A DNA stretch of 64,000 nt from an uncultured Verrucomicrobiae bacterium (GTDB taxonomy: Bacteria > Verrucomicrobiota > Verrucomicrobiia > Chthoniobacterales > UBA10450): the NCBI GenBank assembly GCA_963726745.1, contig CAVSDR010000002.1, positions 96,001 to 160,000 of the forward strand, read 5' to 3'. Every line of letters begins with the position of its first letter. Position 1 is the stretch's first letter. The translations under genes were made by a program, and so were the position numbers. Below are positions 2,320-63,199 of the stretch, piece after piece. The notes below the pieces were generated by a model. It was not told where the DNA came from. It saw nothing but the letters and a program-made list of their open reading frames with translations, and searched no databases.

Positions 2320-3052
2320 CTAGAGACGCACGCGTTCCGCGCTCTCCGCCGGGATCCAGCCGCGGAGGTCGTTTGGCAAGCACGGCGTAACTCCAGCCGC
2401 CGCGGGTGCTCAGGATTTTCACTTCGCTTCCCGGCGGCAAAGTGAGAACCGTTCCGGCGCTTTCCGCCGTCGCCAGGCGCGCATCGACTTGCTTCCCCAC
2501 GATGATCGCCAGCCCGCGGCCGTTTGGCCCCTGCTCGAGTGCGTAGAGCCCGTAGCCCGCGCCCGCGAAAAGCGCGAGCCCAAGCAGGCAGCCCACGACC
2601 GCCAACGCCGAACGCCGGAAGAGAAACCAACCCGCAAGCGCGAAGACCGCGAGCCAAAAACCGAGCGCGGCCACACTCGCGAGCATCGTCGGCGAGGTCC
2701 GGGCGAGCGCTTGCTCCAGGCGATTCCCGCGCAGCTCCAGCGCGCGCGCTTTCTCGCGCACCAGGCGCAGATTCGCGACCGCTTCCGGTTGCTGCGGCTC
2801 GAGCGCGAGCGCGCGCTCGTAGTTCAAGATCGCCGCGCCCAATTCATTAAGCCGGTAATGGGCATTGCCGAGATTATAGAAGAGGGCCGCGCTGGTTTCG
2901 CCGGCTTCGACCAATTGGGTGTAACCCGAGACCGCGGCCCGGAAGTCGCCGGCCGCATATTTCGCATTCGCTTCCGCCCAGCGATCCTGCGCTTGGGCCT
3001 GGGAAGCGGCGAGAAAAAGGAGGCCAATGAAAATTAGCCAGCGACTTCTCAT
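2320..3052 (-). CDS. batE: BatE-like TPR plus SH3 membrane protein (frameshift near 2378)
   Basis: Signal peptide, TPR (YNLGNAHYRLNELGAAILNYERAL), TM helices; shifted frame gives LPNDLRGWIPAESAERVRL* ending at 2320. Confidence 0.75.
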
Positions 3053-4915
3053 GACCGCAGTTCCTCCACCAGCGCGCGGATTTCTTCGCGTCGTTCGGCG
3101 GAGAGCTCCGCCCCGCCGTTGCGCCCACCGCTGTAGCGCAGCTCATCGCTTTCGGCGAACAAGCGCTGCAGCCGCATCCGTTGGTCCGCATTTGCCTGGA
3201 ACGCCTCCGCTGCCACCTCGGCATCCACCGCATCGGGATCGACCTCGCGCGCGAGCGCGGTCTTCAATTGCACCGCGCGCGCCGCGCTGGCGACATACTC
3301 GCGCGGGCTTTCGCCATTGCGCCGCAGCTTCCGCTGCAACTCCGCGGCTTCCTGCTGCAGCCGCGCGATGCGCTGCGCGGCGCGATTCCCGGCGCGAGCC
3401 TGGCGCATTTTCCAACCGACCAAGCCCGCGAGCGCGAGCAGCGGCAAAAGCTGCGCCGCCCAGAAGGCCGGACGTTGATAAATCGGCGTAAAACTCTCGG
3501 GATGCGCGGGACGCTCGGCCAGTTGGTAGAGGATGTCCTGCTCGGTTTTTGCCGGCGCGGGGATGGCTGGAGGTTGCTGGCTATTTGGCGACGCGGAAGC
3601 AACCGCGGGCGTGGGCGTGGAAAGGGGCGCGCCTTCGATCTGCAGCGGGATTGGGTCGCTCTTGAGCGCGACGTAAGTCTCCTTGATCGGGTCAAAGAAG
3701 GCAAAGCTGACCGGCGGCAGTTGCGTCTTCCGCTCCTTTGCGCTCAGCACGGTCTCAAACGTCTTGGTGCCGCTAATCCCGACGTCGTCGTCCTGCTTAA
3801 ACTTGTCGGAAGGCGGATAGCTGTGCCAACCCTCGTCATTCGTTAGGCTGGGCGCGGTCACGCGGTCGAAATTGCCGCGGCCATTGATCGTGGAGACGAC
3901 CGTGATCGGGTCGCCCACCTGCGCTTTCTTCGGATTGGCCTCGGTCTTGAGGCTGAAGTTGCCGACCGCGCCGGAGAATCCCGCGGGCGCGTTCGGAGGC
4001 AGCGCTTTCACTTCCAGGGTCGTGCCTTCGCTTTGCAGTTTCACCTCGCGCGGAATCGAAGGGGCGAAGGCCGGGATCGTTGAAAAATTGGTTAAAGAAA
4101 GGGTCGTCAAACATGTCGCGCGGGACCGCCGGATTCCGTCCGGGGCGGGCCACGCGCACCGTGGGATTGATCTCTGCCGGGCCGATCTCCAATTGTCCCG
4201 CGCGCACCGGCGAGATCGCGGTATTGAAGATGAAGACCTGGTAAGTGCGGCCGTTCACCGTCTCCATCGTCTGCCGCGGCTCGGTCATCTTTTGGGTGGT
4301 GAAGCCTTGTCCGGAAATTTGCACCCCGCTGCCTAACGACTCCACCGGCGCGCGCGTATTCAGCCCCACGCGCACCTGCACCGGGATCATCTCGCCGATG
4401 TAGGCGTTCTGCTTCGGCAGGATCATTTCCACGAAGCCGATCTGCGACGGATCGATCTTCACGTCGCGGCCGGCGTTGCTGTTCCCGCCGCCGCCGCGCG
4501 GGCCGCGCGAACTCTGCGCGCCCTGCGAATTAGCCACGTTTAAGGTCAGCTCCGGCGTCTGCAGAGTCTGGCCGCCGGCCTCCACTCGCTGCGGCGGGAT
4601 GCGGAAGGTGCCCGGTTTTAGGGGCATGATCGTGTAGCTAAAGGTGAAGCTGTAGCTCACGCTGAAATTCCGCATCTCATACTGCCGCGAAGTCCCGGCC
4701 GCGCGGATGTCGAGGCCGTCGATCGTGATCTCACCGGGCGGCCGGGGATTTGAGGTGCCGGTCACTTGAATCTGCAATTGCACCGGACGTCCGACGACCG
4801 TTTCGCTCTCGGTCAGGACCGCGGTCACACTCGGGTTTTCCGCCCGCGCCGGGGCGAGCCACGTCCAGCAGACGAGCGCGACCAAAAGCGGGATGCGGGT
4901 GCGAGTGAACATCAT
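3049..4915 (-). CDS. batD: BatD family protein (frameshift near 4065)
   Basis: ORFs 3836-4933 and 3049-4110 overlap; motifs PGTFRIPP, LEVKALP, FSGAVGNF, FFDP; position in Bat cluster. Confidence 0.8.
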
Positions 4916-4957
4916 CTTCTCATCAACTATCAACGCGGCGGCATCAACTCAGCCGGC

Positions 4958-7105
4958 CTACCAGTCCTTATAGACACGGCGTACCGCCTTGCGTTCATCG
5001 AGCTGCACGCGGGCTTCCTCGTCTTTCATCGAACGGAGCAAGCGCTCGGCTTGTTGGGCGTTCATCGTGCCCTCTTCGGTCGGTTCGGCTTCGGCGGCTG
5101 ACTCTTCCTTCGGCGGTTCCTTCGGTTGCTCTTCGCCCGCGCCTTTTACGTCGCCGCTCGGCTTTTTGTCCGGGGTCCCGGAAGGCGTCGCGGTCGGAGT
5201 GGGCTGCTCGCCGCCCTCGCCATTCTCGCCTTCGCCAGGTGACGGCGTGGGCGAGGCGCCCTGCTGATCTTGGCCCGGAGAAGGCGAGGGGCTGGCGCCA
5301 TTTTCGCCTGGGCTGGGGCTGGGCGACGCGCCGCTTTCGCCGGGGGATGGCGAAGGTGAAGGCGTCGGCTGATTTTCGCCGGGGCTGGGAGAAGGCGACG
5401 GGCTGGGCGATTGGCCCGGTTGGTTTTGTTGCGGCTGTTTTTGATCCTGCCCTTCGCCAGATTGGTCCTTTTGCTCCTGCTGCTTCTCTTTGTCCTGATC
5501 CTGCTTTTGCTGATCCTGCGGCTGCTGCTTCTGGTCCTTGTTTTTGTCGTCTTTCTTCTGGTCTTTGGGCGAGGGAGAAGGGGAGGGCGACGGAGTGGGC
5601 GTGGGCGTGGGCGTCGGCTTTTGTTCCTCTTCCCGCTTCAGCTCTTCGATCTTCTTTTTGACGTAGTCGCGATTCTCCTGCGCTTCCTTGTTCTCGGGCT
5701 GGAGCTTCAGGGTCTGCTCGTAATGCTCGAGGGCGCCGGTCCAATCCTTCAGCTTCGACTCCGGCGTTTTCTGGCCTTCGCCACGCTGGTAAAGCGTGTT
5801 TCCGAGGTTGTAATGACTCTGGCCTTGGAGCTGCAGATCCTTCGAAAGCAACGCCTGGCTAAAGGACTCAAGCGCCTTCCCGTAATCCTTCAATTTGTAA
5901 GCCGCCGCGCCGGCATCGAAGTGCAGCTTGTCGGCCGCGTGCGAATCCGGATGCGCCTCGAGCGTTTGCTGAAAGCGCTGGAGCGCCTCCTGATATTTCT
6001 CGTCGCGATATTCGTCGAGGCCAGGCGCCGCGGCCTGCGCGCCCTGCGCAAAAATAAGCAGCAAGATGGCGCCCGCGAGCGCGCGCTTCGGCTCGCGAGC
6101 GGTCGCGCGCACCGGCCGGCGTTCGCTGATCAAGAGCGACGCCATGAGCGCGAGAATCGCGGCGCCGAGCGGCCATTGATAGCGCTCGATCGGCTGGCGC
6201 GAAGCGCGCGCATCGATCTCCGCCGCCTGCATGTGCGCCAGTCCTTCGTCGTAGAGCCGGCGCATCGTCGCCGGGCCATGCGCCAGCGGTAGGTAAATGC
6301 CGCCGGTCGCTTCCGCGATTTCGCGCAGCCGCTTTTCGTCGAGTTTCGACTTCACCACCTGGCCGCCTTGGTCCTTCACAAACGCAGTCCCGTTCGTCGC
6401 CTGCAGGGGAATCAACGAGCCTTCCGGCGTGCCTACGCCGATTGTGAAAATGCGCACGCCGGCGTCGGCCGCGGCCTTCGCGACCTTGGCGGAATCGCCC
6501 GCAAGCTCCTCGCCATCGGTGAAGACGATCAAGGCGCGATTGCCCACGGCGGATTTGCCGAAGGTCTGGACCGCGAGATCGATCGCCGCGGAGATGTTGG
6601 TCCCGCCTTCCGGGATGATGTTGGTGTCTAATTCAGTCACGGCCTCGGCCGCGGCGCCGTAGTCGATCGTGAGCGGCGCTTGCAGAAACGCGCGCCCGGC
6701 AAACGCGATCAAGCCGACGCGGTCGCCGCGCAGTTCGCCCATCAGATCCTGCACCGCCAGCTTCACCTGCGTGAGGCGATTCGGCGGCACGTCGTTCGCC
6801 AGCATGCTGCGCGAAGTATCGACCGCCACGAGCAGGTCGAGCCCTTTGCGCTTCACCTCCTCGTAGCTGTAGCCGTAGCGCGGCTTGGCCAGACTAACGA
6901 GTGCCAGGCCGATCCCCAGGAGCAACAAGCCGAAGCGGAAAAGCCGGCGTCCGCGGCTGACGGTCGCCCCGAGTTCGCCGAGCAGACGCGGCGAAACAAA
7001 TTGCCGCAAACGCGCCGCGCTGCGCGCTTCTGCCTGCCAGAAGAGGAGCGCGAGCACCGGCAGCAGCAGCAAGCTCCAAAGCCAGAGAGGTGCGCCGAAG
7101 CTCAT
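4958..7105 (-). CDS. batB: VWA-domain plus TPR protein (BatB-BatC fusion) with Gln/Pro/Ser-rich linker
   Basis: MIDAS DTSRSM, VGLIAFAG, FTDGE; TPRs; C-terminal QAERLL...KDW typical of BatC. Confidence 0.8.
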   Translation of the reverse strand: MSFGAPLWLWSLLLLPVLALLFWQAEARSAARLRQFVSPRLLGELGATVSRGRRLFRFGLLLLGIGLALVSLAKPRYGYSYEEVKRKGLDLLVAVDTSRSMLANDVPPNRLTQVKLAVQDLMGELRGDRVGLIAFAGRAFLQAPLTIDYGAAAEAVTELDTNIIPEGGTNISAAIDLAVQTFGKSAVGNRALIVFTDGEELAGDSAKVAKAAADAGVRIFTIGVGTPEGSLIPLQATNGTAFVKDQGGQVVKSKLDEKRLREIAEATGGIYLPLAHGPATMRRLYDEGLAHMQAAEIDARASRQPIERYQWPLGAAILALMASLLISERRPVRATAREPKRALAGAILLLIFAQGAQAAAPGLDEYRDEKYQEALQRFQQTLEAHPDSHAADKLHFDAGAAAYKLKDYGKALESFSQALLSKDLQLQGQSHYNLGNTLYQRGEGQKTPESKLKDWTGALEHYEQTLKLQPENKEAQENRDYVKKKIEELKREEEQKPTPTPTPTPSPSPSPSPKDQKKDDKNKDQKQQPQDQQKQDQDKEKQQEQKDQSGEGQDQKQPQQNQPGQSPSPSPSPSPGENQPTPSPSPSPGESGASPSPSPGENGASPSPSPGQDQQGASPTPSPGEGENGEGGEQPTPTATPSGTPDKKPSGDVKGAGEEQPKEPPKEESAAEAEPTEEGTMNAQQAERLLRSMKDEEARVQLDERKAVRRVYKDW
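5160..5620 (-). repeat. Low-complexity coding repeats (TP)n, (SP)n and Q/K/D-rich tracts in the BatB/C linker
   Basis: PTPTPTPTPSPSPSPSP, SPSPSPSPSPGE, repeated GASPSPSPGE units. Confidence 0.85.
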
Positions 7106-8166
7106 GGCAATTTTTTCCAGATGGTTTGCCCGAGGAGCATCTGTGCAATTAACAGACCGCAGCCCGCGGCGATGCACGCCGGGAAGAGATCGCGATACTC
7201 CTGATATTTGTGCACGCTCACAGTCGACTTCTCGAGCTGGTCGATCTCGCGATAAATTTTCTCGAGCGATTCGGTGTCGGTCGCGCGGTAGAACTTCCCA
7301 TCCGCGATCTGCGCGACCTCCTTCAGGCCCTCCTCGTTGAAATGTACCGGCTGGTTCTGGTAGAGGAGATTGCCGCCGAGATCGGTCAGGAAGCCGCCGC
7401 GCCGATCGGGCACCGGCGCAGGCGCGACGCCGTTGATCCCCGCGCCGATGGCGTAGAAGTGAACCTTGAGCGCCTTGAGCGCTTCCGCCGCGGTCTTCGG
7501 CGGGATTTTGCCGGCATTATTCTCGCCATCAGTCAGCAAGACGAGCACGTGGCTCTTGGACTTTTTGTCGTTCAAACGGCTCGCGGCCGCGGCAATCCCG
7601 GAGCCGATCGCGGTGCCATCTTCGACCAGGCCAATCCGGAGACGGTCGAGGTTTTTCATCAGCCAATCGTGATCCAGGGTCATCGGACTAACGACATAAG
7701 GCCGGCCGGCGAAAGCGATCAGGCCGATGCGATCGTTCGGCCGCGCCTCGATGAATTTCCGCGTCACTTCGCGCACCGCGTCCACCCGCGTCGCCGGATC
7801 GCCGCCGACGGTGAAATCCTTGATCAACATCGAGCCCGAGACGTCGATCGCGAGCATGATGTCGATCCCGCTGGCTTCGACTTGCGTGAGGCTTTTGCCG
7901 AGGCGCGGACGAGCGAGCGCGATGATGAAGCAGGCCAGGCTAACGAACAGCAGCGCGCGCAAAAACTTGCCCGCGCGGCTGGTGCTGCGCTTGCCGAGCC
8001 CGCGCAAGATCGTGGTCGACGAAAAGACGAGCGCCGCGGCCGGGCCACGCTGTCCGCGCAGGTAAGCGAGCAAGGGCAACGTGAGCAACAGCAGCAAGAG
8101 CCACGGCTGCGCGAAGGTCAGGCCGCTGTCCTGCGGCCACCAGGCGCGCCAATCAGGCAGCCGCAA
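7102..8166 (-). CDS. batA: BatA VWA-domain protein
   Basis: FAQPWLLLLL N-terminus, DVSGSM MIDAS, DRIGLIAFAG, GTAIG, LTDGENN. Confidence 0.85.
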   Translation of the reverse strand: MRLPDWRAWWPQDSGLTFAQPWLLLLLLTLPLLAYLRGQRGPAAALVFSSTTILRGLGKRSTSRAGKFLRALLFVSLACFIIALARPRLGKSLTQVEASGIDIMLAIDVSGSMLIKDFTVGGDPATRVDAVREVTRKFIEARPNDRIGLIAFAGRPYVVSPMTLDHDWLMKNLDRLRIGLVEDGTAIGSGIAAAASRLNDKKSKSHVLVLLTDGENNAGKIPPKTAAEALKALKVHFYAIGAGINGVAPAPVPDRRGGFLTDLGGNLLYQNQPVHFNEEGLKEVAQIADGKFYRATDTESLEKIYREIDQLEKSTVSVHKYQEYRDLFPACIAAGCGLLIAQMLLGQTIWKKLP

Positions 8167-8653
8167 GTTGGCCTCCCTTCACGAAACGCATCGCCTCATC
8201 GAGCAAGAGTTCGCTGTCGGCGGTGGTCGCGTCGTAGCGCGCGAACTTGATCAAGTCGCAGCGGTTCAGGAAATCGCCCAGCAGCTCGCGCTCGCCGTCA
8301 TTGAAAGTCCGCGCCTTCGAGATTGCCTCGAGAAATTCCACCGAGGTCTGGCGGGTGATCGGCAGGGCGTATTCCTCGACGACGTAGCGCCGCAGGATAT
8401 CCGAAACGCGGATGCTGAACTCATACGGCGTCTCGCGGGCGATCTCCGGTCGCGCCGCTTCCAGCAACTCGAGCGCGCGCACTCGCGGCGGGCGCGGTGG
8501 AACCGGTTTGCGCTTTCGGCGCAGGAAGGCCCAGACGAGCAACCCGAGAATCGTTAGGCCAACGAAAGCGCCGGCAAACACGACCCACGGCGGCAGGAGC
8601 GAATACTCCACCGGCGGCGCGATATCGTGAAATTCCTGGGCGAGGATGAACAT
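8153..8653 (-). CDS. DUF4381-like membrane protein of Bat operons
   Basis: HDIAPP motif, single TM, DLIKFA; located between DUF58 and batA. Confidence 0.65.
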   Translation of the reverse strand: MFILAQEFHDIAPPVEYSLLPPWVVFAGAFVGLTILGLLVWAFLRRKRKPVPPRPPRVRALELLEAARPEIARETPYEFSIRVSDILRRYVVEEYALPITRQTSVEFLEAISKARTFNDGERELLGDFLNRCDLIKFARYDATTADSELLLDEAMRFVKGGQLAAA

Positions 8654-8668
8654 CTTGCTGGCTAAATT

Positions 8669-9584
8669 TTAGCGGATCGCGAGGCGGCGTTCGCGTTGCT
8701 TGAAGAAAGCGCGCAAGCCCGGGAGGTAATCCTCGCCGGTCTGGAGCGCGATCGTGTCGATGTTGTTCCGGCGCAGGGTGCGCTTCAGATCGGCCGCCTG
8801 CGCTTCGGCTAATTCCGCAGAAATGCCGGCGGAGCGAGCGGTCGCCGGTGTTGATCTCGATCTGCTCGCCGGTCTCGGCGTCCTCGAGCGTGATGATCCC
8901 GATATCAGGCAGCACTTTCTCGCGCTCGTCCTGCACATGGAGCGCGATGAAATCGTGCCGCCGGCCGGTGATCGCGAGCTCGCGCGAGAAGTCGCCCGCC
9001 TGGAAGTCGGAGACGAAAAACACGACCGCGCGACGCGTTTGCACTTTGTTCAAGTATCGCAGCGCCAGCGCCGGATCGGTCCCGCGGCTTTGCGGTTCGA
9101 AGAAGAGAATTTCGCGGATCAAACGGAGCGTGTGCGAGCGGCCTTTCTTCGCCGGGATGTAGAGCTCCACCTGGTCGGTGAAGAGGAGCAGCCCGACCTT
9201 GTCGTTATTCCGGATGGCGCTGAAGGCGAGCAGGCAGGCCACTTCCGCCGCGAGTTCGCGCTTCGATTGCGAGACGCTGCCAAAACTGCCGGAGGCGCTC
9301 ACGTCGACCACGAGCATGACTGTGAGCTCGCGCTCTTCGGTGAACTTTTTCACAAAGGGCACGCCGAGGCGCGCGGTCACATTCCAATCGATCGCGCGAA
9401 TCTCGTCGCCCGGCTGATACTCGCGGACTTCGTCGAAATTCATCCCGCGCCCCTTGAAGACGCTGTGATAATCCCCCGCAAAAACCGTCTGCACCAACCC
9501 GCGGGTCTTGATCTCGAGCGCGCGGATTTTGGCGAGGATTTCGGCGGGCGTCTGCTGGCCTGCGGCGTCGCCGTTTTTCATCAC
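8669..9584 (-). CDS. DUF58 family protein (frameshift near 8826)
   Basis: GDYHSVFKGRGMNFDEVREYQPGDEIRAIDWNVTAR; C-terminus continues in ORF 8669-8938. Confidence 0.9.
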
Positions 9585-10567
9585 GGGACCGGCAAGCCGG
9601 CGAAGATCCGGTCAATGATCGTTTCGCTCGAGATAGTCTCGGCCTCGGCTTCGTAGCTCACGATGATGCGGTGGCGGAGGACGTCGTGGCCGATGCTCTT
9701 CACGTCCTGCGGCGTGACATAGCCGCGGCCGTTGAGGAAGGCGTGCGCGCGCGCCGCGAGAGCGAGGAAGATGGTCGCGCGCGGCGAGGCGCCGTAGCGG
9801 ATGAGGCCGTCGAGTTGCAGGTTGTAGGTCGCCGGTTCGCGCGTGGCCCAGACGACGTCAACGATGTAGTCCTTCACCCGATCGTCGATGTAGATGCTGT
9901 TCACCACCTGGCGGGCGGCGACGATGTCCTTCGGGTCGACCACGGGCGAGACCTGGAGATTCGGCGCGGAGGTGGCCATGAGGTCGAGGATCTGGCGTTC
10001 CTCGGATTTCTGCGGGTAGCCGACGTTAAGCTTCAACATGAAGCGGTCGAGCTGCGCCTCCGGAAGTTGGTAAGTGCCTTCCTGCTCGAGCGGGTTTTGC
10101 GTCGCGAGGACGAGAAAAGGATCGGGCAGGGGATAGCTTTGGTCGCCGAGCGTGACCTGGCGTTCCTGCATCGCCTCGAGGAGCGCGCTCTGCACCTTGG
10201 CCGGCGCGCGGTTGATCTCGTCGGCTAAAATTAAGTTGGAAAAGAGCGGGCCGAACTTGGTGGTGAATTCGCCGCTGCGCGGGTTGTAGATCAAAGTGCC
10301 GACTAAATCCGCGGGCAGGAGATCGGGGGTGAACTGCAACCGCTGAAAGCCGGTCTGGATGGCATTAGCCAGCGTCTTGATCGTGAGCGTCTTCGCCAGG
10401 CCGGGCACGCCCTCGAGCAGGAGGTGGCCATTAGCCAGCAGGCCGAGGAGCAAGCGGTCGACCAGGTATTTCTGGCCAATAACCACGCGGCCGACTTGCT
10501 CGCGCAGCGCAGGAATCCACTGACCGAGCTGCTGCACTTCCTGGGTGATTTCCTGCGTAGATTTCAT
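9581..10567 (-). CDS. moxR: MoxR family AAA+ ATPase
   Basis: LLEGVPGLAKT, QFTPDLLPAD, ADEINRAPAKVQSALLEAMQE, ATQNP. Confidence 0.95.
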   Translation of the reverse strand: MKSTQEITQEVQQLGQWIPALREQVGRVVIGQKYLVDRLLLGLLANGHLLLEGVPGLAKTLTIKTLANAIQTGFQRLQFTPDLLPADLVGTLIYNPRSGEFTTKFGPLFSNLILADEINRAPAKVQSALLEAMQERQVTLGDQSYPLPDPFLVLATQNPLEQEGTYQLPEAQLDRFMLKLNVGYPQKSEERQILDLMATSAPNLQVSPVVDPKDIVAARQVVNSIYIDDRVKDYIVDVVWATREPATYNLQLDGLIRYGASPRATIFLALAARAHAFLNGRGYVTPQDVKSIGHDVLRHRIIVSYEAEAETISSETIIDRIFAGLPVP

Positions 10568-10609
10568 AGAGATGGTTGAGACAGGCGACCGCGCGGAATG
10601 TTCGAATTC

Positions 10610-12031
10610 CTACTTTTCTTCGCTGGTGCGCGCGCGGCAGGTGAGCAGCACCGGCAAGCCGGGATACGGCTCGAGCTCGCGAATCCGTCGCTCGAGGTAA
10701 CGCCCGTAGGTATCGCTCAGGAGTTTCGGCTGATTCACGAAAAGGATGAACTTGGGCGGATCGATCGCGCGCTCATTATCGCCGCCGGCCTGGGTGGCGT
10801 AGAACAACTTGAGCCGCTTGTTCCCGATCGTCGGAGGAAGGGTGGTGTCGAGCGCCGCGCGGAGCATGCGATTGAGCACGCCGGTGCCGATGTGTTTCCC
10901 GGCCGCGGTCTGCACTTCGTCGATCAACTTGAAGAGGCGGTCGACGTTCTCACCGGTTACGGCGGAGGTGATCAGCACTGGGGCGTAGTCGAGGAAGAAG
11001 AGATTCGCGCGTGTCTGGCTAACGAGTTCTTCCTGCGAGGCCTTGGCCCCGCGCTCCGGTTTCACCAGGTCCCATTTGTTCAGGACGATGATCGACGGTT
11101 TGCGCGACTCCTGGATCAGGCCGGCTATTTTTTTGTCCTGCGAGGTCACCCCGCAGGTGACGTCAATCACGAGCACGCAGAGGTCGGCGCGGCGAATGGT
11201 GCGCTCGGCGCGCATGACGCTGAAGACTTCCACCGAAGTGGAATGCTTACTCCGCTGCCGCATCCCGGCGGTATCAATCAAGAGATAAGACTGACCGTTG
11301 CGCTCGTAGGAAATGTCGACCGCGTCGCGCGTGGTCCCGGGGATGTTGCTCACGATCGTGCGCTGATCCTGGAGGACGGCGTTGATCAGGGAACTCTTGC
11401 CGGCGTTTGGCCGGCCGATGATCGCGAGCGCGAGCGGTGGCTTGGCCTCCTCCCTGGGCGTGTCGCTTTCGGTCGCAGTCTCGGCCGGGAGCAGTCGCTC
11501 GATCACCCCTAACAAGTCATTAATCCCGCGACCGTGCGCGGCGCTGATCGGGACGGTGCGCTGGAAGCCGAGCTGCGAGAACTCCGCCTCGAGCGGTTCG
11601 TGGTTCGGATGGTCAATCTTGTTCACCACCAACACGACGGGTCGCTTCGATTTCCGCAGCATGCTGGCTAATTCCTGGTCGATCGGCGCAAGTCCATGCT
11701 GCGCATCGACCACGAAGAGGATGACCTCGCTCTCGCGCATGGCGGCGTCGGCCGCGGCGCGGACCTCGGAGTTGAGCTCGGTCTCACCGGCGCCGCCGAT
11801 GCCGCCGGTATCCCAGATGACGAAGGGCCGCGCACCTTTGTTGCAGGGCGCAGCCAGGCGATCGCGCGTGATCCCCGGCTGGTCGTGGACGATCGCGATG
11901 TTGCGCCCGGCCAGGCGATTGAAGAGCGCGGATTTCCCCACGTTCGGACGGCCGACAATGGCGACGCGTAATTGCGGGGAATCTTCCATAAGCTTGCGGG
12001 GCGCGCCGTTATTGGGCGCTTGATTGTCCAT
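10610..12031 (-). CDS. der: Ribosome biogenesis GTPase Der (EngA); start uncertain
   Basis: Two G-domains (GRPNVGKS..DTGG..NKID; GRPNAGKS..DTAG..NKWD) plus KH-like tail. Confidence 0.95.
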   Translation of the reverse strand: MDNQAPNNGAPRKLMEDSPQLRVAIVGRPNVGKSALFNRLAGRNIAIVHDQPGITRDRLAAPCNKGARPFVIWDTGGIGGAGETELNSEVRAAADAAMRESEVILFVVDAQHGLAPIDQELASMLRKSKRPVVLVVNKIDHPNHEPLEAEFSQLGFQRTVPISAAHGRGINDLLGVIERLLPAETATESDTPREEAKPPLALAIIGRPNAGKSSLINAVLQDQRTIVSNIPGTTRDAVDISYERNGQSYLLIDTAGMRQRSKHSTSVEVFSVMRAERTIRRADLCVLVIDVTCGVTSQDKKIAGLIQESRKPSIIVLNKWDLVKPERGAKASQEELVSQTRANLFFLDYAPVLITSAVTGENVDRLFKLIDEVQTAAGKHIGTGVLNRMLRAALDTTLPPTIGNKRLKLFYATQAGGDNERAIDPPKFILFVNQPKLLSDTYGRYLERRIRELEPYPGLPVLLTCRARTSEEK

Positions 12032-12608: not shown

Positions 12609-12702
12609 GGGGGCGCGCCGTGCGACTTGAAATTGCCTGCGGCCTTGCGGCCCGCAAATCATTTGGTCTCGGGCAGTGATTGGGTAAAGGTGGGGCCGCA
12701 CC

Positions 12703-12787: not shown

Positions 12788-12874
12788 GGGCCCTGAGCGC
12801 TCGTTAGGCGGCAGGTTCCGGGGCTGCGAAACGGTGGTCGTTTTTTCTATTCTTCGCATGCGGTCCTTTTCTCC

Positions 12875-53533: not shown

Positions 53534-53617
53534 GCGCTGATTACGCGACGATTTCACGCGGCGGGCAATCCCCGAATCGCTCTTCGTTTTCCCGCGACCC
53601 GGTGCTAATGCTCCCGC

Positions 53618-54289
53618 ATGCCTGCCCCGCGTCTCATCGCCGCGCCGAAGATTCCACATCGCTCCGATGATGAATTGCTCGAGCGCGCGCTTTCGTTTCA
53701 CGCGGAAATGCAGCGCCGCCGCACGATCCGCGAATTCTCTCCACGGCCGGTTCCGCGCGCGTTGATCGAGCTTTGTCTGCGCACCGCCGGCACGGCGCCC
53801 AATGGCGCGAATCTGCAGCCGTGGCACTTCGTTGCGATCAGCCAGGCCGCGATCAAGCAGCGCATTCGCGTCGAGGCCGAGGAGGAGGAACGCGAATTCT
53901 ACCAGCACCGCGCGCCGGCCGCGTGGCTCGAGGCGCTGGCTCCCATTGGGACTGATTCGAACAAGCCCTTCCTCGAGATCGCGCCCTGGCTGATCGCGAT
54001 TTTCGCGCAGCCGTTTCGCCTGCTGCCCGATGGGACGAAGCTGAAGCACTACTACGCCACCGAGTCTGTCGGCATCGCCACCGGACTACTCGTTAGCGCG
54101 CTCCATCATTGCGGGCTCGCCGCGCTCACGCATACGCCCAGCCCGATGGCTTTCCTGAATAAAATTCTCGGCCGCCCGGCGCACGAAAAGCCATTCATCT
54201 TGCTGGTTGTGGGTCATCCGGCCGACGACGCCATGGTCCCGGACATCCAGCGCAAGCCGCTGGAAGAAATCAGCTCATTCGTAACGTAG
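53618..54289 (+). CDS. Nitroreductase-fold protein, iodotyrosine deiodinase-like
   Basis: [51 protein letters not shown]. Confidence 0.85.
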
Positions 54290-55495
54290 CGCCTCGATCG
54301 GATCGAGCGCCGCCGCACGGCGTGCCGGGTAAAATCCGAAGAACACACCCACGGCCGCGCTGAAGAGAAACGAAACCACGATCGAGCTGACGGAGATCAA
54401 GGTTGGCCAATCGGCCACGCGCGAGAGAATCTGCGAGGTCCCGAGGCCGAGGAGGATGCCGATCACGCCGCCGATGGAGCTAAGCGCCACGGCCTCGATC
54501 AAAAATTGCATCAGGATATCGCGGCCATGCGCGCCCACCGCGAGCCGCACGCCGATCTCGCGCGTTCGCTCGGTGACGCTCACGAGCATGATGTTCATGA
54601 TCCCGATGCCGCCGACAATCAGCGAGACGCCCGCGATCGAGCCGAGGAGCAGCGTCATCACCCGCGAGGTCGCGGTCGCGGTCTCGGCGATTTCCTCCTG
54701 CGTGCGCACGGTGAAGTCGTCGTCTCTGCCTTCGCGAATGTTATGCCGCTGGCGCAGCAACCCGATGATCTGCTGCTGCGCCGGCGCGAGGTCGGGCGCG
54801 CTTGCGACCTGCACGTTGATGTTCCGCAAAGTCACGCCGCCGCCGAGCACGCGTTTCATCGCGCTGGTGTAAGGCATGATCACGATGTCGTCCTGGTCGG
54901 TGCCCTGCGGACTAAGGCCGCGCGGCGCGAGCACGCCGGTGATGACAAACGGCACATTCTTGATCCGCAGAATTTGGCCGACCACATCCTCGCTCCCGAA
55001 AATCTGGGTCGCGGTCGTGCGGCCGACCACCGCGACCTTGTTCGAGCTGCGCACATCTTGCTCGGTAAACTGCGCGCCCGCGATCAAGGGCCATTGCCGC
55101 AGTTGGAAATAGTCAGCCGATTCGCCGTAGATGCGGGTGAACCAATTCTGATTTCCGGCCGCGACCTGCGCGGTCGAGACGACTTCCTCGCTTACCAAAG
55201 TGACGCCTGGCACTTCGCGCCGGATCGCTTCCGCATCCTCGATCTTGAGCGTGCCGGCGCCGCCCCAGCCGGTGCGGATCCCGCTCGCGGTGGTGCTGCC
55301 GGAAAAGATCAGAATCACGTTCTCGCCCAGGCTCGCGATCTGCGCTTCCACCTGCGCCTTGGCGCCGTTGCCGATGCTGACCATGGCGATGACCGCGCCC
55401 ACGCCGATGATAATCCCGAGCGCGGTCAACCCGGAGCGCAGCTTGTTCCGGCGAAGGGCGCGCCCGGCGATCTTGAAGGTGGAGACGACGCGCAT
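54275..55495 (-). CDS. MacB/FtsX-family ABC permease
   Basis: [52 protein letters not shown]. Confidence 0.92.
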
Positions 55496-55501
55496 GATTC
55501 G

Positions 55502-56248
<747 letters not shown>

Positions 56249-56264
56249 GGCGACAAAGGGAAGG

Positions 56265-57494
56265 CTACGGCCGGCCGCGTCCGCCGCCGCCGCTGAAGGG
56301 ATTATTCGTGGGCGACCGCGGGGCCGCCGCGCCGGCCTGGATGCTCCCGGTGATCGCCGCGTCGCCTTCGCGCAAGCCTTCGAGGACTTCGGTCACGGCG
56401 CCATCGCTGATGCCGGTCTTGATTTGCACCGCCTTGGGCTCCGCGTCCGGGGACGGGAGGACGTAAACGGTGCGCTCCGGACGCCGTTCTTCGCCGCCGG
56501 GACCGCTGCGTCGCCCGCCGCGGCCGCCGCGGCCTGCGCCACCCGCCCCGCCGGCGGCTGGCGTGCTTGCGACCGTCTTGTCGACATTCGGCGGGCGGAA
56601 ACGGAGGGCCGCGTTGGAAACTTTGACGACATTTTCGCGCTGAGCCACGACGATGGAAACGTTCGCGGTCATGCCGGGCTTCAACTTCCCGTCGGGATTG
56701 CTGACGCTGATGACGGTGTCGTAGCTGACGACATTCTGGACGGTGATGGGCGCGTTCCGCACCTGCTTCACTTTTCCGTGGAAGGTCTGCGTGGGAAAGG
56801 CGTCGACCGTGAAGTCGACCGGCTGGTCGATCTCGACCGCGCCGATGTCGGCCTCGGCCACGTTGGCGTCGATCTGCATATTCGTGAGGTCGGCCGCGAC
56901 GGTGAAAATAACCGGCGCATTCAGGCTCGCGGCCACAGTCTGCCCGACGTCGACATTCCGGGAAATGACGATGCCATCGATCGGCGAGGCGATGGTGCAA
57001 TTATTCAAATCGACCTTCGCTTTCTGCAGCGCGCCTTCCTTGATTTTGACCGCGGCTTCCGCCTGGTGGAGCGAGGCCGTGGCCTGGTCGAGCTCGGACT
57101 GCGAGGAGTTTTGCTTGGCCACGAGCGACTGCGTGCGGCTGGCGTTGAGTCGCGCGAGCTCGAGCACGGCCTGGGAGTTGGCCAGGTCGCCTTCGGCTTG
57201 CGCGACGTTGGCCTGGTAGATCGAAGGATCGATCTGCGCGATCACTTCGCCCGCTTTCACGGGGGAATTAAAATCCGCGAAGAGCTTCTGGATTTGCCCG
57301 GAGATCTGGCTGCCTACTTGCACGTTGACCACCGGGTTCAATGTCCCCGTGGCCGTGACCGCCTGGGTGAGCGGGCCGCGCGTGACCGGCGCGGTCTGGT
57401 AGGAACTGCCGGCGCGGCCGCGTCCCTTCCAGCCGAAGTAAAGCGCGAGCGCGATCAGGGCGAAGGCGAGGAGGATGAGGACCGCGCGTTTCAA
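56265..57494 (-). CDS. MacA-like periplasmic adaptor (membrane fusion protein)
   Basis: ATGTLNP..VQVGSQISG, SPIDG.V, GQTVAAS, LKPGMTA. Confidence 0.9.
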   Translation of the reverse strand: MKRAVLILLAFALIALALYFGWKGRGRAGSSYQTAPVTRGPLTQAVTATGTLNPVVNVQVGSQISGQIQKLFADFNSPVKAGEVIAQIDPSIYQANVAQAEGDLANSQAVLELARLNASRTQSLVAKQNSSQSELDQATASLHQAEAAVKIKEGALQKAKVDLNNCTIASPIDGIVISRNVDVGQTVAASLNAPVIFTVAADLTNMQIDANVAEADIGAVEIDQPVDFTVDAFPTQTFHGKVKQVRNAPITVQNVVSYDTVISVSNPDGKLKPGMTANVSIVVAQRENVVKVSNAALRFRPPNVDKTVASTPAAGGAGGAGRGGRGGRRSGPGGEERRPERTVYVLPSPDAEPKAVQIKTGISDGAVTEVLEGLREGDAAITGSIQAGAAAPRSPTNNPFSGGGGRGRP

Positions 57495-57825
57495 GAAAAG
57501 GACTGGGAGAAAATCATGCTGGTGTCCTGATACAACCACCGAATAGATACACAAGTTGCGCCCCGGACACGCCCAAGATGTCCCGCGGCGCGAATCTCCT
57601 TGGGGTATGAGGGAAATTTTTGTGAGCTTCGTTTCGCCGGTGGAGCTGTCGCTCCCGGGAAACGTCGTCACCGCCGGGCGCCGTTGATTCGTTAGGCGCC
57701 CCGCGTCGCAGCCTCCTACATTCGTCGTTCCGGGGTTTTTTTGGTTCGGGGGAATCCAAAAAGTTCTGGGCGGCGAATGTAGGTTGATGCTCGGACGTCC
57801 CGATGAGCCCGAGGAAGAGGTGCCC

Positions 57826-58491
57826 ATGCCTTCCTCGCCACAGGAGTTGAATCAACTCCTGCTTTTCGGTAGTCCCTCGACACGCCGCCGGTTTCTCAAA
57901 CAAATTGCCGGCACCGGCGCAGCCCTCGCCGTTGGCTCGCGGTTCTCCGCCCTGGCGCAAAATTCTCCCGCCGCGGTCGCCTCGCCCGCGGCGGCGAAGG
58001 CGGCAGCGGCGTCTCCGGCTGTTCCATTGAAGTTCCAGCTGAACGGCAAGGAGGTCGCGCTCGAAGTCGACCCGCGCACCACTTTGCTCGATCTCCTGCG
58101 CGAGAATCTCCAGCTCACCGGATCGAAGAAGGGCTGCGATCACGGACAATGCGGCGCCTGCACGGTGCTGGTGAATGGCCGGCGTGTGAATTCCTGCCTG
58201 AGCCTGGCATTAATGAATGACGGGCTCGAGGTCACCACGATCGAAGGCCTCGCGGAACCGGGCGGCCAACTGCACCCAATGCAGGCGGCCTTCATCGAGC
58301 ACGACGGTTTCCAATGCGGCTACTGCACCTCCGGGCAGATTTGTTCCGCGGTGGCTTGCGTCCAGGAAGGCCACACGCGGAGCGACGCGGAGATTCGTGA
58401 ATGGATGAGCGGCAATCTCTGCCGTTGCGGCGCCTATCCGAACATCGTCGATGCGATCAAGACCGCGCGGGCGAAAGGGGCGGGCGCGTGA
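57826..58491 (+). CDS. 2Fe-2S subunit of aldehyde oxidoreductase (PaoA/YagT-like) with Tat signal
   Basis: TRRRFLK Tat motif; [22 protein letters not shown]. Confidence 0.9.
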
Positions 58492-59480
58492 CTCCCTTCA
58501 CCTACGCCCGGGCCACCGACGCAGCCAGCGCGATCAGCGGCGTGGCCGACAATGGGCAGGCTAAATTTCTCGGCGGCGGAACGAATTTAGTCGACCTGAT
58601 GAAGATGGGCGTGGAAACGCCGCGGCATCTCGTCGATCTCAATCGCCTGCCGCTCGCGCAAGTCGAGGAACTCCCGAATGGCGGCGGCGTGCGCCTGGGC
58701 GCGCTCGCGCGCAACTCCGATGTCGCCGAGCATCCGTTGATCACCGCGCGCTATCCCGTGCTGAGCCAGGCGCTGCTTTCCGGCGCCAGTCCGCAGCTGC
58801 GGAATCTCGCGACCACCGGCGGCAATCTCCTCCAGCGCACGCGCTGCTATTATTTCTACGACCCCGACTTTCCCTCATGCAATAAGCGGCAACCTGGCAG
58901 CGGCTGCGGCGCGCTCGGCGGATTCAATCGCATTCACGCGATCCTCGGCCAGAGCGAGCAATGCATCGCCACCAACCCGAGCGACCAAAACGTCGCGCTG
59001 GTCGCGCTCGAGGCGGTCGTGCGCGTGCAGGGCCCGCAGGGCGAGCGCACCATCCCGATCGCAGATTTCCATCGCCTGCCCGGAAGCACGCCGAACGTGG
59101 AGACAAATCTACGGCCGGACGAATTGATCATCGCAGTCGATCTTCCGGCGACGCCGTTCCTTGCGCGCTCGCATTATTTGAAAATGCGCGACCGCGCGAG
59201 TTACGCCTTTGCGCTCGTCAGTGTGGCTGCGGCCTTGGAAATGGAAGGCGACAAGATCAAAACTGCGCGCCTTGCCCTTGGCGGCGTGGCGCATAAACCC
59301 TGGCGCGCGAGCAAGGCGGAGCAGGCGCTCGTAGGCCAATCCGCGACCGAGAAGAATTTCCGCGCCGCGGCCGAGGTGGAATTGGCCGAAGCGAAGGCTT
59401 ACGAGCACAACAAATTTAAGATCGAGCTCGCGAAACGCTCGATCGTTCGGGCGCTGACCACGGTCGCGGGGATGTCCTGA
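58488..59480 (+). CDS. FAD-binding subunit (PaoB/YagS-like)
   Basis: [30 protein letters not shown], conserved Cys cluster, RDRASYAFA. Confidence 0.92.
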
Positions 59481-59482
59481 TT

Positions 59483-61738
59483 ATGGCGGAGCCAGGCAAA
59501 ATCATGGGCCCAGCGCGGAGTCGGGTCGACGGTCCGCTCAAAGTCACCGGCGGCGCGAAATATGCCGTGGAATTTGAGGTGCCGAATTGCGCCTTTGCCT
59601 GGCCGGTCGAGAGCACGATCTCGAAGGGTAAAATCCTCTCGATGGACACGGCCGCGGCGGAGGCTTCGCCCGGCGTTTTGAAAGTGCTGACTCCTTTCAA
59701 CGCACCGCAGCCAAAGGAAGCGAAGGCCAAGGAGGAACGCCAGTCCGGCTCCGGCATTCGCAACGAGGAGCGCAATCCGCTGAGCGACGACCAGGTTCAT
59801 TACGGCGGGCAATACATCGGCCTGGTGGTGGCGCAGACGATCGAGCAAGCGCGGCACGCGGCTGATTTAGTGAAGGTGAGCTACGCGCCCGAGACGCCAG
59901 TCTTGACCATGGAAGCCGCGCGCGACGAGGCGACCAAGCCGAAGAAGAACAACCAGGAAAAGGTCCAGGTGGACAAAGGCGACGCCGCCAAGGCGCTGGC
60001 TAATTCCGAGCTCGTGCGCGTGGAGCAGACCTACCTTACGCCGACTGAAACGCACAACCCGATCGAGACTTCAGGCACGATCGCAGTCTGGGAAAACGAC
60101 GACAAGCTGACCGTGTTTGACGCCACCCAATTCGTCAAAGGCGTGCAGAGTTTGCTCGCCCGGACCTATGGCTTGGAGACGGAAAACGTGCGCGTCATTT
60201 GCCCCTTCGTCGGCGGCGCCTTCGGCTGCAAAGGCGCGCTCTGGCCGCACGTGCTCCTCGCCGTCATGGCCGCGAAAGAAGCGCGCGTGCCGGTGAAGTT
60301 CCACCTGCCGCGGCGTTCGATGTTTACCAGCACCGGCCATCGCACGCCCACGCGGCAGACGATTGGCCTGGCCGCGACGCGCGACGGGAAGCTGCAGGGC
60401 ATGCGGCACGTGACCGAGACGCTGACTTCGCCCGTGGGCGAATACACCGAATCCTGCGGCACGCGCTCGACCGGCTCGCTCTACGACTGCGCGAACATTC
60501 GCATCGAGGAAGTTGTTTACCCGCTTAATGTCGCCACACCCACCTTCATGCGCGCGCCCGGCGAGTGCCCCGGCACTTACGCGCTCGAGTGTGCCCTGGA
60601 TGAATTAGCCGACGCGCTCAAGCTGGACCCGGTGCAGCTCCGCGTGATGAATTACGCGGCCAATCACCCCACAAAGGAAGGCAATCTTCCCTTCAGTGCG
60701 AAGCACCTGAAGGAATGCTACACCGTCGGCGCGGAGCGTTTCGGCTGGGCCAAGCGCAACGCCAAACCGGGCAGCATGCGCGATGGCGACCAACTCGTCG
60801 GCTGGGGCATGGCCACCGCAACCTATCCTGCGCACAAGCGCAACGCCGCGGCCAAGGTCATCCTGCGCGATGACGGCAGCTGCACGGTGCAATGCGCCAC
60901 GCACGATCTCGGCACCGGCGCTTACACCGCCTTCACGCAGCTTTCCTCCGAGTTCCTCGGGATTCCTTTCGAGAAAATTACCTTCGAGCTCGGGAAGTCC
61001 GACTTCCCTTACGGCCCGGTCGCCGGCGGGTCGAACTCCACCGCAACTGTCGGGACCGCGATCAGCGAAGTCGCCACGCTGCTGCATCAGGAGCTCGCGC
61101 GGCTCGCGGTCAAGAGCCCAAACTCGCCGCTCTTCAAGGCGGAGGCGGCGAACCTCTCTTTGGTCGCACCGGGGCGGCTCGGCTTGAAATCGGAGCCCGC
61201 GAAGTCGGACGCCTTTGCCGACATCGTCAAGCGCACCGGCAAGCCGACCGTAGTCGTCGAGACGCAGCTTAAGAAAGCGGACGACGCGAAGAAGGAGTTC
61301 GCCTTTCAATCTTTCGGCGCGCATTTTGTCGAGGTGAAGATCGATCCGCTGTTGCCGCGCGTGCAGGTCACCCGGGTGGTGAGCGTGATCGATTGCGGCC
61401 GCGTGGTCAGCGCGAAGACCGCGCGCAGCCAGATCATCGGCGGAGTGGTCATGGGCCTCGGCATGGCTTTGATGGAGGAGACTTCCTACGATCCGCACAC
61501 CGGCCTGCCGGTGACGCGCAACCTGGCCGACTACCACGTGCCGACCAACGCCGACGTTCCCGAGATCGACGTCCACTTCGTTGGCGCGCCCGACTTTGCT
61601 TTCAACCCCGCGGGTGCGCGGGGCATCGGCGAGATCGGTAATACCGGCATCGCTGCGGCGGTGGCAAACGCGGTCTACCACGCCACCGGCCAGCGCGTGC
61701 GCGATCTGCCGATCACGCCCGACAAGCTCCTGGTGTGA
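59483..61738 (+). CDS. Molybdopterin-binding subunit, xanthine dehydrogenase family (PaoC/YagR-like)
   Basis: RVDG..KVTG.AKY, GGAFGCK, MRAPG, AGGS, GIGEIG. Confidence 0.93.
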   Translation: MAEPGKIMGPARSRVDGPLKVTGGAKYAVEFEVPNCAFAWPVESTISKGKILSMDTAAAEASPGVLKVLTPFNAPQPKEAKAKEERQSGSGIRNEERNPLSDDQVHYGGQYIGLVVAQTIEQARHAADLVKVSYAPETPVLTMEAARDEATKPKKNNQEKVQVDKGDAAKALANSELVRVEQTYLTPTETHNPIETSGTIAVWENDDKLTVFDATQFVKGVQSLLARTYGLETENVRVICPFVGGAFGCKGALWPHVLLAVMAAKEARVPVKFHLPRRSMFTSTGHRTPTRQTIGLAATRDGKLQGMRHVTETLTSPVGEYTESCGTRSTGSLYDCANIRIEEVVYPLNVATPTFMRAPGECPGTYALECALDELADALKLDPVQLRVMNYAANHPTKEGNLPFSAKHLKECYTVGAERFGWAKRNAKPGSMRDGDQLVGWGMATATYPAHKRNAAAKVILRDDGSCTVQCATHDLGTGAYTAFTQLSSEFLGIPFEKITFELGKSDFPYGPVAGGSNSTATVGTAISEVATLLHQELARLAVKSPNSPLFKAEAANLSLVAPGRLGLKSEPAKSDAFADIVKRTGKPTVVVETQLKKADDAKKEFAFQSFGAHFVEVKIDPLLPRVQVTRVVSVIDCGRVVSAKTARSQIIGGVVMGLGMALMEETSYDPHTGLPVTRNLADYHVPTNADVPEIDVHFVGAPDFAFNPAGARGIGEIGNTGIAAAVANAVYHATGQRVRDLPITPDKLLV

Positions 61739-62632
61739 AAGAGCTCGCGGAAATCCTGCGGCTCTCCCAGGAAAAGCGCGGCCAAAGTTTTGCGCTGGCC
61801 ACGCTCGTGCGGGCCACCGGCAGCAGTTATCGGCGGCCGGGGGCGCGCATGCTCATCGCCGGCGATGGGACTTTAGCCGGCTCGCTCAGCGCCGGATGCC
61901 TCGAGGAGGAAGTGGCGCTCGCAGCGCGTGAAGTCCTGCAGAGCGGTGCGGCGAAGTTGCTTTCGTTCGACACGCGGCGGCGATTTGGCTGTCACGGCAG
62001 CATCGAGATTTTCCTCGAATGCGTGGAGGAAGCCGCTGCTCGCGGGGGTCGCGGAACGAGTCGTTAGGCGGGAGCCGTTTCTCCTGGCGACGCGTTTTGC
62101 CGGTGCCGGCCCGCTCGGCACTTCGCTTCCGGAATTCGCGCCGGCGGACGCGGAAATCTTTAGCCAGCAAGTTGAGCCGGCCGTGCGCCTCCTGGTTTTC
62201 GGAAGCGGACCGGACAGCGCCGCGCTGCAGGCGCAGGCCACGCTGCTCGGCTGGGAAGCGGAGCAACACGAAAGCATCGCGGAATGGCCAGGCGGCGTGG
62301 ACGCCTGGACCGCGGCGGTCATCGCGACGCACAACTACGGGCGCGATGCTGCGGCCTTGCGCCATCTGCTTCCGCTCGGCTTGCGCTACCTTGGCGTCGT
62401 CGGCCCGCGGCGGCGGCGCGAGGAATTGCTCCTCGATGTGCTCGATAGCGGCGCGGCGCCCTGCTCGGATTTGTTCGCTCCGGCGGGATTGCATCTGGCC
62501 GCGGATTCTCCGGCGGAGATCGCGCTCTCGATTGTCGCGGAAATCCAGCGCGTCTTCGCCGCGGCTACGGGCGTTTCTCTGCGCGAACGGCGCGAGCCGA
62601 TTCACCAGCCACCCGGCGCCCTCGCGCTTTAG
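61735..62632 (+). CDS. XdhC/CoxI family Moco chaperone (frameshift near 62030)
   Basis: GSSYRRPGARM, GSLSAGCLE, FGCHG; ATHN, YLGVVGPR, PAGL..P.EIALSI.AEI. Confidence 0.88.
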
Positions 62633-62635
62633 CCG

Positions 62636-63199
62636 GTGGCGCACGCGGCCATCGTTCTCGCGGCTGGCGGCTCAACCCGCTTCGGTCGGCCAAAGCAACT
62701 CGCGGAACTCGCCGGTGTGTCGCTCTTGGAACGTGCGATTGCCTGCGCGCTCGCGGCCGGCGCCGAGCCGCTCGTGGTCCTCGGCGCGGAGGCGGACCGG
62801 CTTGCGCCCCTGGCCAAAAAGGCGGGCGCGAGAGCGGTGGTTAATTCGCTCTGGAGGCGCGGCCTCGGCACCTCCATTCGCGTGGGCGTGGAGCATTTAG
62901 ACAGCGAGATCACCCGCGTGCTCCTGATGGCTTGCGATCAGCCACTCGTTCCAGCGGCGCATCTGCGCGCTTTGCTGGCCTCGACGGCGCCCGTGGCTGC
63001 GAGCCGCTACGCTGGCACTCTGGGAATTCCCGCGGCTTTCGCGCGCGCGCGCTTCGGCGACTTGCTCTCGTTAGGCGACGAGGAGGGCGCGAAAGGCCTT
63101 CTAGCGGGTGCGGACGAGTTCCCCGCGCCCGCCGCCGCCGACGACATCGACACGCCTGCGCAGCTCGCGGAGATCGCTGGCAAAGTTGCGCGCGCATGA
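62636..63199 (+). CDS. mocA: Molybdenum cofactor cytidylyltransferase-like nucleotidyltransferase
   Basis: IVLAAGGSTRFGRPKQL, G.GTSI, CDQP, GD.GAK, DIDTP; operon context. Confidence 0.8.
   Translation: MAHAAIVLAAGGSTRFGRPKQLAELAGVSLLERAIACALAAGAEPLVVLGAEADRLAPLAKKAGARAVVNSLWRRGLGTSIRVGVEHLDSEITRVLLMACDQPLVPAAHLRALLASTAPVAASRYAGTLGIPAAFARARFGDLLSLGDEEGAKGLLAGADEFPAPAAADDIDTPAQLAEIAGKVARA

Follow-up and report, generated by a model that had tools for sequence, protein, structure and literature searches.

Two short words recur on both strands throughout the window analyzed here, a 64,000-nucleotide stretch of DNA from an uncultured bacterium of the order Chthoniobacterales (Table 1). Word A is (W-SS)ACTCGTTAGGC, with the consensus W-S-S-A-C-T-C-G-T-T-A-G-G-C and the strict core TCGTTAG; single mismatches to its 9-mer, TCGTTAGGC, are enriched at positions 2, 8 and 9 and not at G3, T4, T5 or A6, which narrows the strict core to GTTA. 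Word B, RAWTTAGCCRRCRASWTS, is a quasi-palindrome with the 9-mer TTAGCCAGC, and its consensus, R-A-W-T-T-A-G-C-C-R-R-C-R-A-S-W-T-S, forms an 18-bp imperfect dyad. An initial annotation of the window had listed 21 copies of TCGTTAGGC (13 plus, 8 minus) and 17 of TTAGCCAGC (10 plus, 7 minus), all of which are present where it placed them. It had also joined these copies into one TTAG family with the consensus (TCG|AWT)TTAGNCRGC. This merger is rejected, because the two words differ in flanks, phylogenetic range and spacing behavior, and hybrids are few: of 2,119 A sites, 237 are scored as B too under a loose expectation-maximization model of B. With ~5,500 sites, that model may have taken up some codon structure, and no count given here relies on it.

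Table 1. Sites of words A and B in the window, followed by neighboring genes
Feature	Position	Strand	Remarks
Word A family	3840..63076	both	21 exact 9-mers; 36 TCGTTAG copies
Word A in gyrB	23937..23945	-	reads TCG TTA GGC (Ser-Leu-Gly), with the rare TTA codon
Word A providing the true TAA stop codon for an ABC ATPase gene (55502-56230, -)	55499..55507	+	6 bp ahead of the permease start
Word B family	1780..62911	both	17 exact TTAGCCAGC; 21 long-pattern copies
Long-pattern B copies	1789-, 3033+, 8666-, 10229-, 10307-, 10364+, 14644+, 18355+, 20060-, 21490+, 33681-, 37121+ and -, 37771-, 41017-, 41384+, 43178-, 46809-, 60004-, 62159+, 62896+	as given with each position	
Word B in gyrA (template strand)	21490..21505	+	arises through synonymous codon choices
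Head-to-head B pair between convergent genes	37110..37132	both	11-nt arms, 91% complementary, 1 nt apart
A/B hybrid site TCGTTAGCCAGC	50827..50844	+	
Second A/B hybrid site	29008-29019	-	
PilT/PilU-family retraction ATPase	28592..29830	-	TIGR01420 above cut-off; context, outside the words
Type II secretion/type IV pilus-like genes	32189..40230		prepilins, GspK-, PilM-, GspM-, GspG- and GspF/PilC-like; context only

The genome that holds the window (G000; 3.41 Mb in 7 contigs, ~64% GC) was annotated with a purpose-written gene finder, which called 3,164 genes (86% coding). By its GyrA, which for the most part shares 84-92% identity with sequences labeled Chthoniobacterales, Spartobacteria or Ca. 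Udaeobacter, G000 is a soil-type Verrucomicrobium; judging from sequence, Ca. Udaeobacter probably falls in the same family. For comparison, we counted the words in 201 family genomes of at least 80% completeness, with the reversed word as the control. Unpublished genomes (G001, G008, G155 and G208, and likewise G045) are counted within the family tallies.

Both 9-mers top the 6- to 11-mer enrichment lists of G000 at order 3, and thus the over-representation proposed by the initial annotation extends beyond the window to the whole genome. There are 1,312 exact copies of TCGTTAGGC (631 plus, 681 minus), compared to 19.7 expected under an order-3 Markov model, and 479 copies of TTAGCCAGC compared to 15.7; a strict B pattern occurs 854 times. 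The enrichment also persists under the codon- and dipeptide-aware nulls suggested by that annotation. We used three synonymous shuffles, conducted genome-wide, within genes, or among codons conditional on both neighboring residues. Coding copies of TCGTTAGGC number 973, whereas the shuffles yield 12 (maximum 16 in 5 runs), 25 and 248, respectively. The corresponding values are 355 versus 15, 23 and 70 for coding TTAGCCAGC, and 379 versus 1, 3 and 8 for the long B pattern in coding DNA.

Word A is abundant against codon preference. Approximately 74% of its copies lie within reading frames, and the 1,312 copies divide into 448 read as TTA-Leu, 230 read as CTA-Leu, 215 and 73 in other open frames, 169 that supply stop codons and 177 that are intergenic. 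TTA (2.8%) and CTA (1.3%) are the two rarest leucine codons of G000. The words also distort the proteome, as evident from the tripeptides PNE and SLG, which rank 3rd and 4th among 6,748; 449 of the 767 SLG tripeptides are encoded by TCGTTAGGC. When flank profiles are made frame by frame, and again for intergenic sites, the consensus of each word stays the same, and therefore the flanks are DNA-level features. The words arise by substitution. At the gyrA site of word B, the peptide GYLIALANLD is identical in 62 of 68 close orthologs, and the motif is found in only 3 of 81 rows. At the gyrB site of word A, TCGTTAG is present in 23 of 63 aligned orthologous rows (G000 and short-read contigs included), and the peptide LISLG is retained.

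The words also end genes. Although G000 has 64% GC, its stop usage is nearly even (TAG 35%, TGA 35%, TAA 30%), in part owing to the stops that the motifs contribute. These stops are genuine, and each in-frame case that was inspected marks the boundary of two separate genes. At convergent overlaps, in which a single TTAG can terminate both genes, motif stops are over-represented (33-45% versus 16%). Read-through or recoding was considered and rejected: genes that end in A have more in-frame coding-like DNA downstream (21% versus 8%), yet those listed turn out to be normal boundaries within operons, and no excess of coding-like read-through is seen for genes that end in B. Among tetranucleotides, G000 strongly avoids GTAC (0.16 of expected) and CTAG (0.28).

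The density of both words is even along all contigs of G000. Accessory DNA had been named as a place to look for a difference, and both words are indeed scarce in low-GC islands. A polysaccharide island (C7:45-100 kb) holds 6 A and 4 B copies, compared to about 33 and 14 expected, and the 5% of genes with the lowest GC content at third codon positions have about one third of the word density, although both words are AT-rich. Head-to-head overlaps of B (CTAA-N-TTAG) occur 19 times genome-wide versus 2.9 expected, several of them inside genes, and this excess is partly due to self-compatible flanks. Pairs of GCCTAAC and GTTAGGC at attC spacing, where inverse core and core lie 50-140 bp from each other between cassettes, are not in excess in G000. 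The 16S region contains no site, a stretch of 1.7 kb that is too short to count.

No result is more informative than the spacing of the words. In G000, A-A pairs at distances of up to 300 bp number 198 versus 361 expected and B-B pairs 40 versus 64, whereas A-B pairs number 355 versus 305; six control 7-mers have no sustained deficit. Each word therefore avoids itself and does not avoid the other, a pattern that would suggest separate readers of similar reach. The A-A deficit is fitted best by a triangular kernel of ~450 bp that falls to 0.25 at zero distance (Akaike information criterion 689, versus 694 for an exponential, 699 for a step and 798 for a flat kernel). A relative, G062, behaves similarly over 240 kb, with 7 A-A pairs within 200 bp versus 25 expected, 44 pairs of a third word, C (see below), at 50-200 bp versus 92, and 132 A-C pairs within 200 bp versus 110. 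No helical phasing of 10-11 bp is seen among A-A distances up to 300 bp in G000, and no A tandems are found there. In word-rich relatives, however, the close pairs are mostly direct tandems of fixed phase: 22 of 33 close C pairs are spaced at 15-16 bp (17 and 6 versus a background of 0.6), and 9 of 39 close A pairs sampled from G083 and G192 are spaced at 10-11 bp. The tandem copies have unlike flanks, and thus are not simple duplications.

The phylogenetic ranges of the words are equally distinct. Word A has matches in all 201 family genomes, from 13 copies in G059 to 4,633 in G192; in 5 of the 201 its count does not exceed that of the control word. It is present in all 24 same-genus genomes (138-2,412 copies) and exceeds 1,200 copies in each of the 27 genomes of genus g37. 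Outside the family, 16 genomes from 15 other Chthoniobacterales families have 1-19 copies. Forward and reverse counts of A are about equal in nearly all 201 family genomes. The B core TTAGCCRGC exceeds its control in only three of them, namely G000 (797 versus 144), G015 (213 versus 144; a weak, shorter form) and the unpublished genome G045 (172 versus 110), on which the claim of a variant ending rests. No sequencing run contained more than 0.10 of the sampled words, and the contigs, as mixtures of relatives, are uninformative about habitat and about B in this strain.

De novo searching of relatives yielded the third word, C, which is (C)AAGATCGACA(AT). It has 22 copies in G000 and as many as 4,653 in g38, a genus that is rich in A as well, and its distribution is patchy among clades. 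Additional words that seemed to be present in G059 and G015 were rejected as tandem repeats; G015 has recurrent intergenic 7-bp arrays of the AACTTCC/AACGTCG type (L459:4614-4775 and other loci). In G028, a genome from another family, TCGTTAGGC is found in clusters ~500 bp apart and mostly on one strand (C7:94047-96651, C2:640583-643004, C21:53993-55767), the pattern that would be expected of integron cassette arrays. From these data, the words are real, genome-wide and family-specific, and they are two rather than one. The expectation of an undescribed uptake, nucleoid-protein or modification-linked motif in this lineage therefore survives as regards a real, lineage-specific and strand-symmetric word of the type read by proteins, and fails in treating two independent words as a single motif.

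Viral carriage was also evaluated. Among 118 IMG/VR loci that match two 14-base A patterns, each with one copy by construction, six carry at least three TCGTTAGG, two of these being near-duplicates. None of 80 fetched C loci carries four or more copies of C. One 29.5-kb provirus record with portal, protease and head genes, whose host is not established, has 14 copies of TCGTTAGG versus 3 of the control word. Haemophilus phage HP1 (32 kb) similarly carries 17 uptake signal sequences (USS) versus 3 control words, and therefore phage carriage cannot separate uptake from intracellular reading. In a further phage record (G228; L283:6500-6930, 10890-10925), an A-like word lies inside a thrice-repeated, AT-flanked intergenic element that is possibly a phage promoter or operator.

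To search for readers, candidate families were examined singly against the word distribution. PilT was rejected because its presence in 100 of 101 family genomes does not follow the words; G000 has six PilT/PilU-family matches (C6:646616 and five others), and most family members have 4-6. Of 101 family genomes, 61 have a ComEA-type helix-hairpin-helix (HhH) domain that scores above cut-off; this domain does not follow the words either. In both proteins of relatives that were scanned (e.g. L432:784-1680) this domain is fused to an SNase nuclease domain; G000 has kept the nuclease part (C4:17242-17889), and elsewhere only a 34-residue HhH fragment (C2:230175-230279). An orphan, single-copy N6/N4 DNA methyltransferase (G000:C3:981068-982042; L438:1252-2226) is present in 98 of 101 family genomes at ~70-80% identity and in none of four outside the family, and was rejected as a reader because it also occurs in A-poor G059. 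It is a CcrM-like core methylase, and its gene is convergent with an HD-domain gene. Dam-type methyltransferases occur in 23 of 101 family genomes, with none in C-rich G044 and one among three in genus g38, and hence do not follow C.

A small winged-helix-like protein found in 194 of 201 genomes, A-poor G059 included, gave no link to the words. G000 encodes two paralogous 101-residue winged-helix-like proteins with Ala/Lys tails (C3:581048-581353 and C2:186195-186500), and the one that was scanned has no Pfam match. Their best matches are ~80-93% conserved across the family, and the pair are candidate nucleoid proteins of Verrucomicrobiota. A second small pair is encoded at C4:87313-87630 and C6:962411-962680. 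Another small winged-helix-like candidate, looked up only in the Atlas, likewise gave no link to the words. Within the window, an Rfam scan returned two tRNAs and nothing else. A Gfo/Idh oxidoreductase (17239-18306) and prfC (18432-20034) are each spread over two frames, probably by assembly indels, and recA elsewhere in G000 also looks split.

Several known systems resemble these words in part. The USS of Pasteurellaceae (core AAGTGCGGT) share with them a 9-bp asymmetric core with graded flanks, a density of about one per 1-3 kb, an origin by point mutation, enriched encoded tripeptides, scarcity in acquired DNA and carriage by a temperate phage (HP1). In contrast, the words described here have another sequence, belong to another phylum, are rarely arranged as inverted terminator pairs and are known from sequence alone; moreover, two unrelated words (three in the family) coexist with independent spacing. 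DNA uptake sequences (DUS) of Neisseriaceae (GCCGTCTGAA and dialects, with the receptor ComP) are likewise strand-symmetric, number in the thousands and have lineage-specific variants. However, the dialects of DUS are forms of a single word and track phylogeny, whereas A, B and C are separate words that occur in combinations. An excerpt of one study describes a CTG core conserved across all DUS dialects (PMC3630211), and word A, with GTTA as its strict core, lacks it. The likeness to the Neisseria sequences seen by the initial annotation is superficial.

The cyanobacterial highly iterated palindrome HIP1 (GCGATCGC) is also hyper-abundant, intragenic, spread by substitution and non-randomly spaced, and its function is debated (uptake, a methylation ratchet or chromosome structure). 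HIP1 is a perfect 8-bp palindrome with known methylase sites, unlike the asymmetric A and the degenerate 18-bp dyad of B, to neither of which a methylase was matched. Searches of the literature on Udaeobacter, Chthoniobacterales and Verrucomicrobia (motif, uptake, competence, methylome and nucleoid) found no such words among the matches listed, with most subscription papers and bioRxiv supplements, whose k-mer tables could hold a word, outside the search. A text search with four A 9-mers also had no match concerning such a motif among those listed.

We favor the reading that A and B accumulate by drive at the level of uptake or recombination through two independent readers, and put its probability at roughly 0.45. 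A and B would then be recognition words of two separate sequence-specific DNA-binding proteins that act on homologous DNA moving between cells. Word-bearing fragments would be taken up, protected or recombined more often, and word-creating point mutations would spread by molecular drive, as modeled for the Haemophilus USS. If one copy per fragment is enough, same-word neighbors would become scarce within a few hundred bases, and two readers acting independently would create no A-B deficit. Counting in favor are the abundance beyond codon-aware nulls, the origin by substitution, the enriched tripeptides, the scarcity in islands, the strand symmetry, the turnover between lineages and the avoidance of the same word but not of the other. 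We infer that proteins read the words, that reading takes place during DNA acquisition, and the effective tract length. In established systems, the tripeptides encoded by USS and DUS are enriched, according to part of one report (PMC2817400), and an excerpt of another states that USS and DUS are under-represented in newly acquired segments and that a second USS less than 100 bp from the first brings no additional uptake in Haemophilus (PMC7811141). Statistically, the words thus appear to behave like uptake sequences, although we do not claim membership of that class.

The search for competence genes that had been proposed for the window returned ComEC (191 of 201 family genomes) and PilT, with DprA and prepilins in G000, which fits this reading. 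Several observations weigh against it. Neither an intact ComEA nor a ComP-type pilin was found in G000. The best prepilin match of G000 to PF16732 scores 20.4 bits (cut-off 27.3), and no scanned prepilin reaches the cut-off. ComEC does not track A, as G059 has ComEC yet 13 A copies. PilX-like DUF7305 pilin paralogs were rejected because they are present in 55 of 101 genomes and missing from A-rich G013, G024 and G062, and no receptor for any word was identified among the candidates examined. The HhH-SNase fusion suggests DNA feeding. One saturable receptor for both words would deplete A-B pairs, and two readers must therefore be assumed. For the B-B deficit a step kernel fits equally well or better, and in 180 kb of A-rich G083 avoidance is weak (39 A-A pairs versus 26 at 0-50 bp, 59 versus 78 at 50-200 bp). 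Fixed-phase direct tandems are more readily reconciled with an oligomeric protein than with a receptor at the tip of a pilus. Inverted pairs in terminators are typical of DUS and USS, as described in part of a recent preprint (bioRxiv 2025.10.24.684340), whereas no excess is found genome-wide for A, and for B only the head-to-head overlaps described above. Finally, uptake sequences favor frames with preferred codons according to an excerpt (PMC2817400), whereas the commonest frame of A uses the rare leucine codon TTA.

Because of these departures (no terminator pairs, no CTG core or ComP, several unrelated words and phased tandems), explanations based on intracellular proteins and on methylation stay alive. 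It is possible, though less likely, that A, B and C are bound inside the cell by sequence-specific proteins such as a nucleoid organizer, a loader or a repair factor. In the very large populations of soil, weak selection would then maintain sites at intervals of roughly a few hundred bases to kilobases, each site would serve a sliding, spreading or repair range of ~300-450 bp, and oligomers would prefer phased tandems. Independent spacing for each word fits such proteins, as do the tandems with unlike flanks, the dyad of B, which has the shape typical of dimer sites, the gyrB site common to many orthologs and the A-like word in the repeated phage element. A structural role is hard to square with the ~350-fold variation in A copy number within the family and the near species-specificity of B. 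Moreover, the flat density along all contigs is unlike that of matS, parS, SlmA-binding sites (SBS) and Noc-binding sites (NBS), and the two small winged-helix-like candidates gave no link. A methylation-linked ratchet, in which a solitary methyltransferase marks part of a word and biased repair turns near-matches into the word, has been described as a hypothesis for HIP1 in part of one source (PMC13756078), and here we judge it improbable. The orphan N6/N4 methyltransferase does match the family boundary of A, and C includes GATC and TCGA. However, that enzyme is also present in G059, where A is not enriched, the Dam-type genes do not follow C, three words are beyond one enzyme, and the words differ from methylase sites in their length, their asymmetry or degeneracy and their graded flanks.

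The remaining alternatives fare worse. Chi and the FtsK-orienting polar sequences (KOPS) are polar relative to replication, and polar recombination or translocation signals of this kind would also be short, asymmetric, abundant and mostly intragenic. A and B have no replication polarity, as evident from strand counts of 609 versus 607 for A and 256 versus 245 for B (40 windows of 50 kb, with the leading strand inferred from GC skew in a genome that is not closed) and from the near-equal forward and reverse counts of A in nearly all family genomes; such signals are therefore very unlikely, as the initial annotation had argued. Hardly any weight is given to an artefact or by-product, whether codon or peptide bias, base-calling error or integron attC core sites. 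The assembly does contain frameshifts, such as prfC in two frames, and GTTAGGC, an integron attC core, resembles attC ends. Nevertheless, the profile is maintained in every frame and in intergenic DNA, in-frame motif stops are junctions of distinct genes with no read-through excess for B, divergent A pairs are not in excess and most copies of A are inside reading frames. Base-calling error, which had been raised as a possible source of the words, is rejected for A because the same gyrB site is present in k-mer-named short-read contigs of relatives.

A broader and more tentative proposal is that this abundant soil family has a combinatorial vocabulary of words (A, B, C and possibly more), each written by its own fast-evolving reader, gained and lost independently to give species-specific combinations. 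The readers might be undescribed oligomeric proteins that filter gene flow or organize the chromosome. Uptake of DNA by sequence has been established for no more than two families, both proteobacterial, and drive versus selection as the cause of word accumulation is a long-open question. The UBA10450 family offers natural experiments lacking in those two families, namely 350-fold variation in A, a near species-specific B, a clade-patchy C and two-word genomes that allow the spacing of both words to be compared within the same DNA; the pattern of presence and absence makes the readers findable by comparative genomics. If the uptake reading is true, genetic work on these soil Verrucomicrobia would become practicable through donor DNA to which a word has been added. 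If the vocabulary reading is true, this would be the first multi-word system of its type and the first uptake-like specificity in the Planctomycetes-Verrucomicrobia-Chlamydiae (PVC) superphylum.

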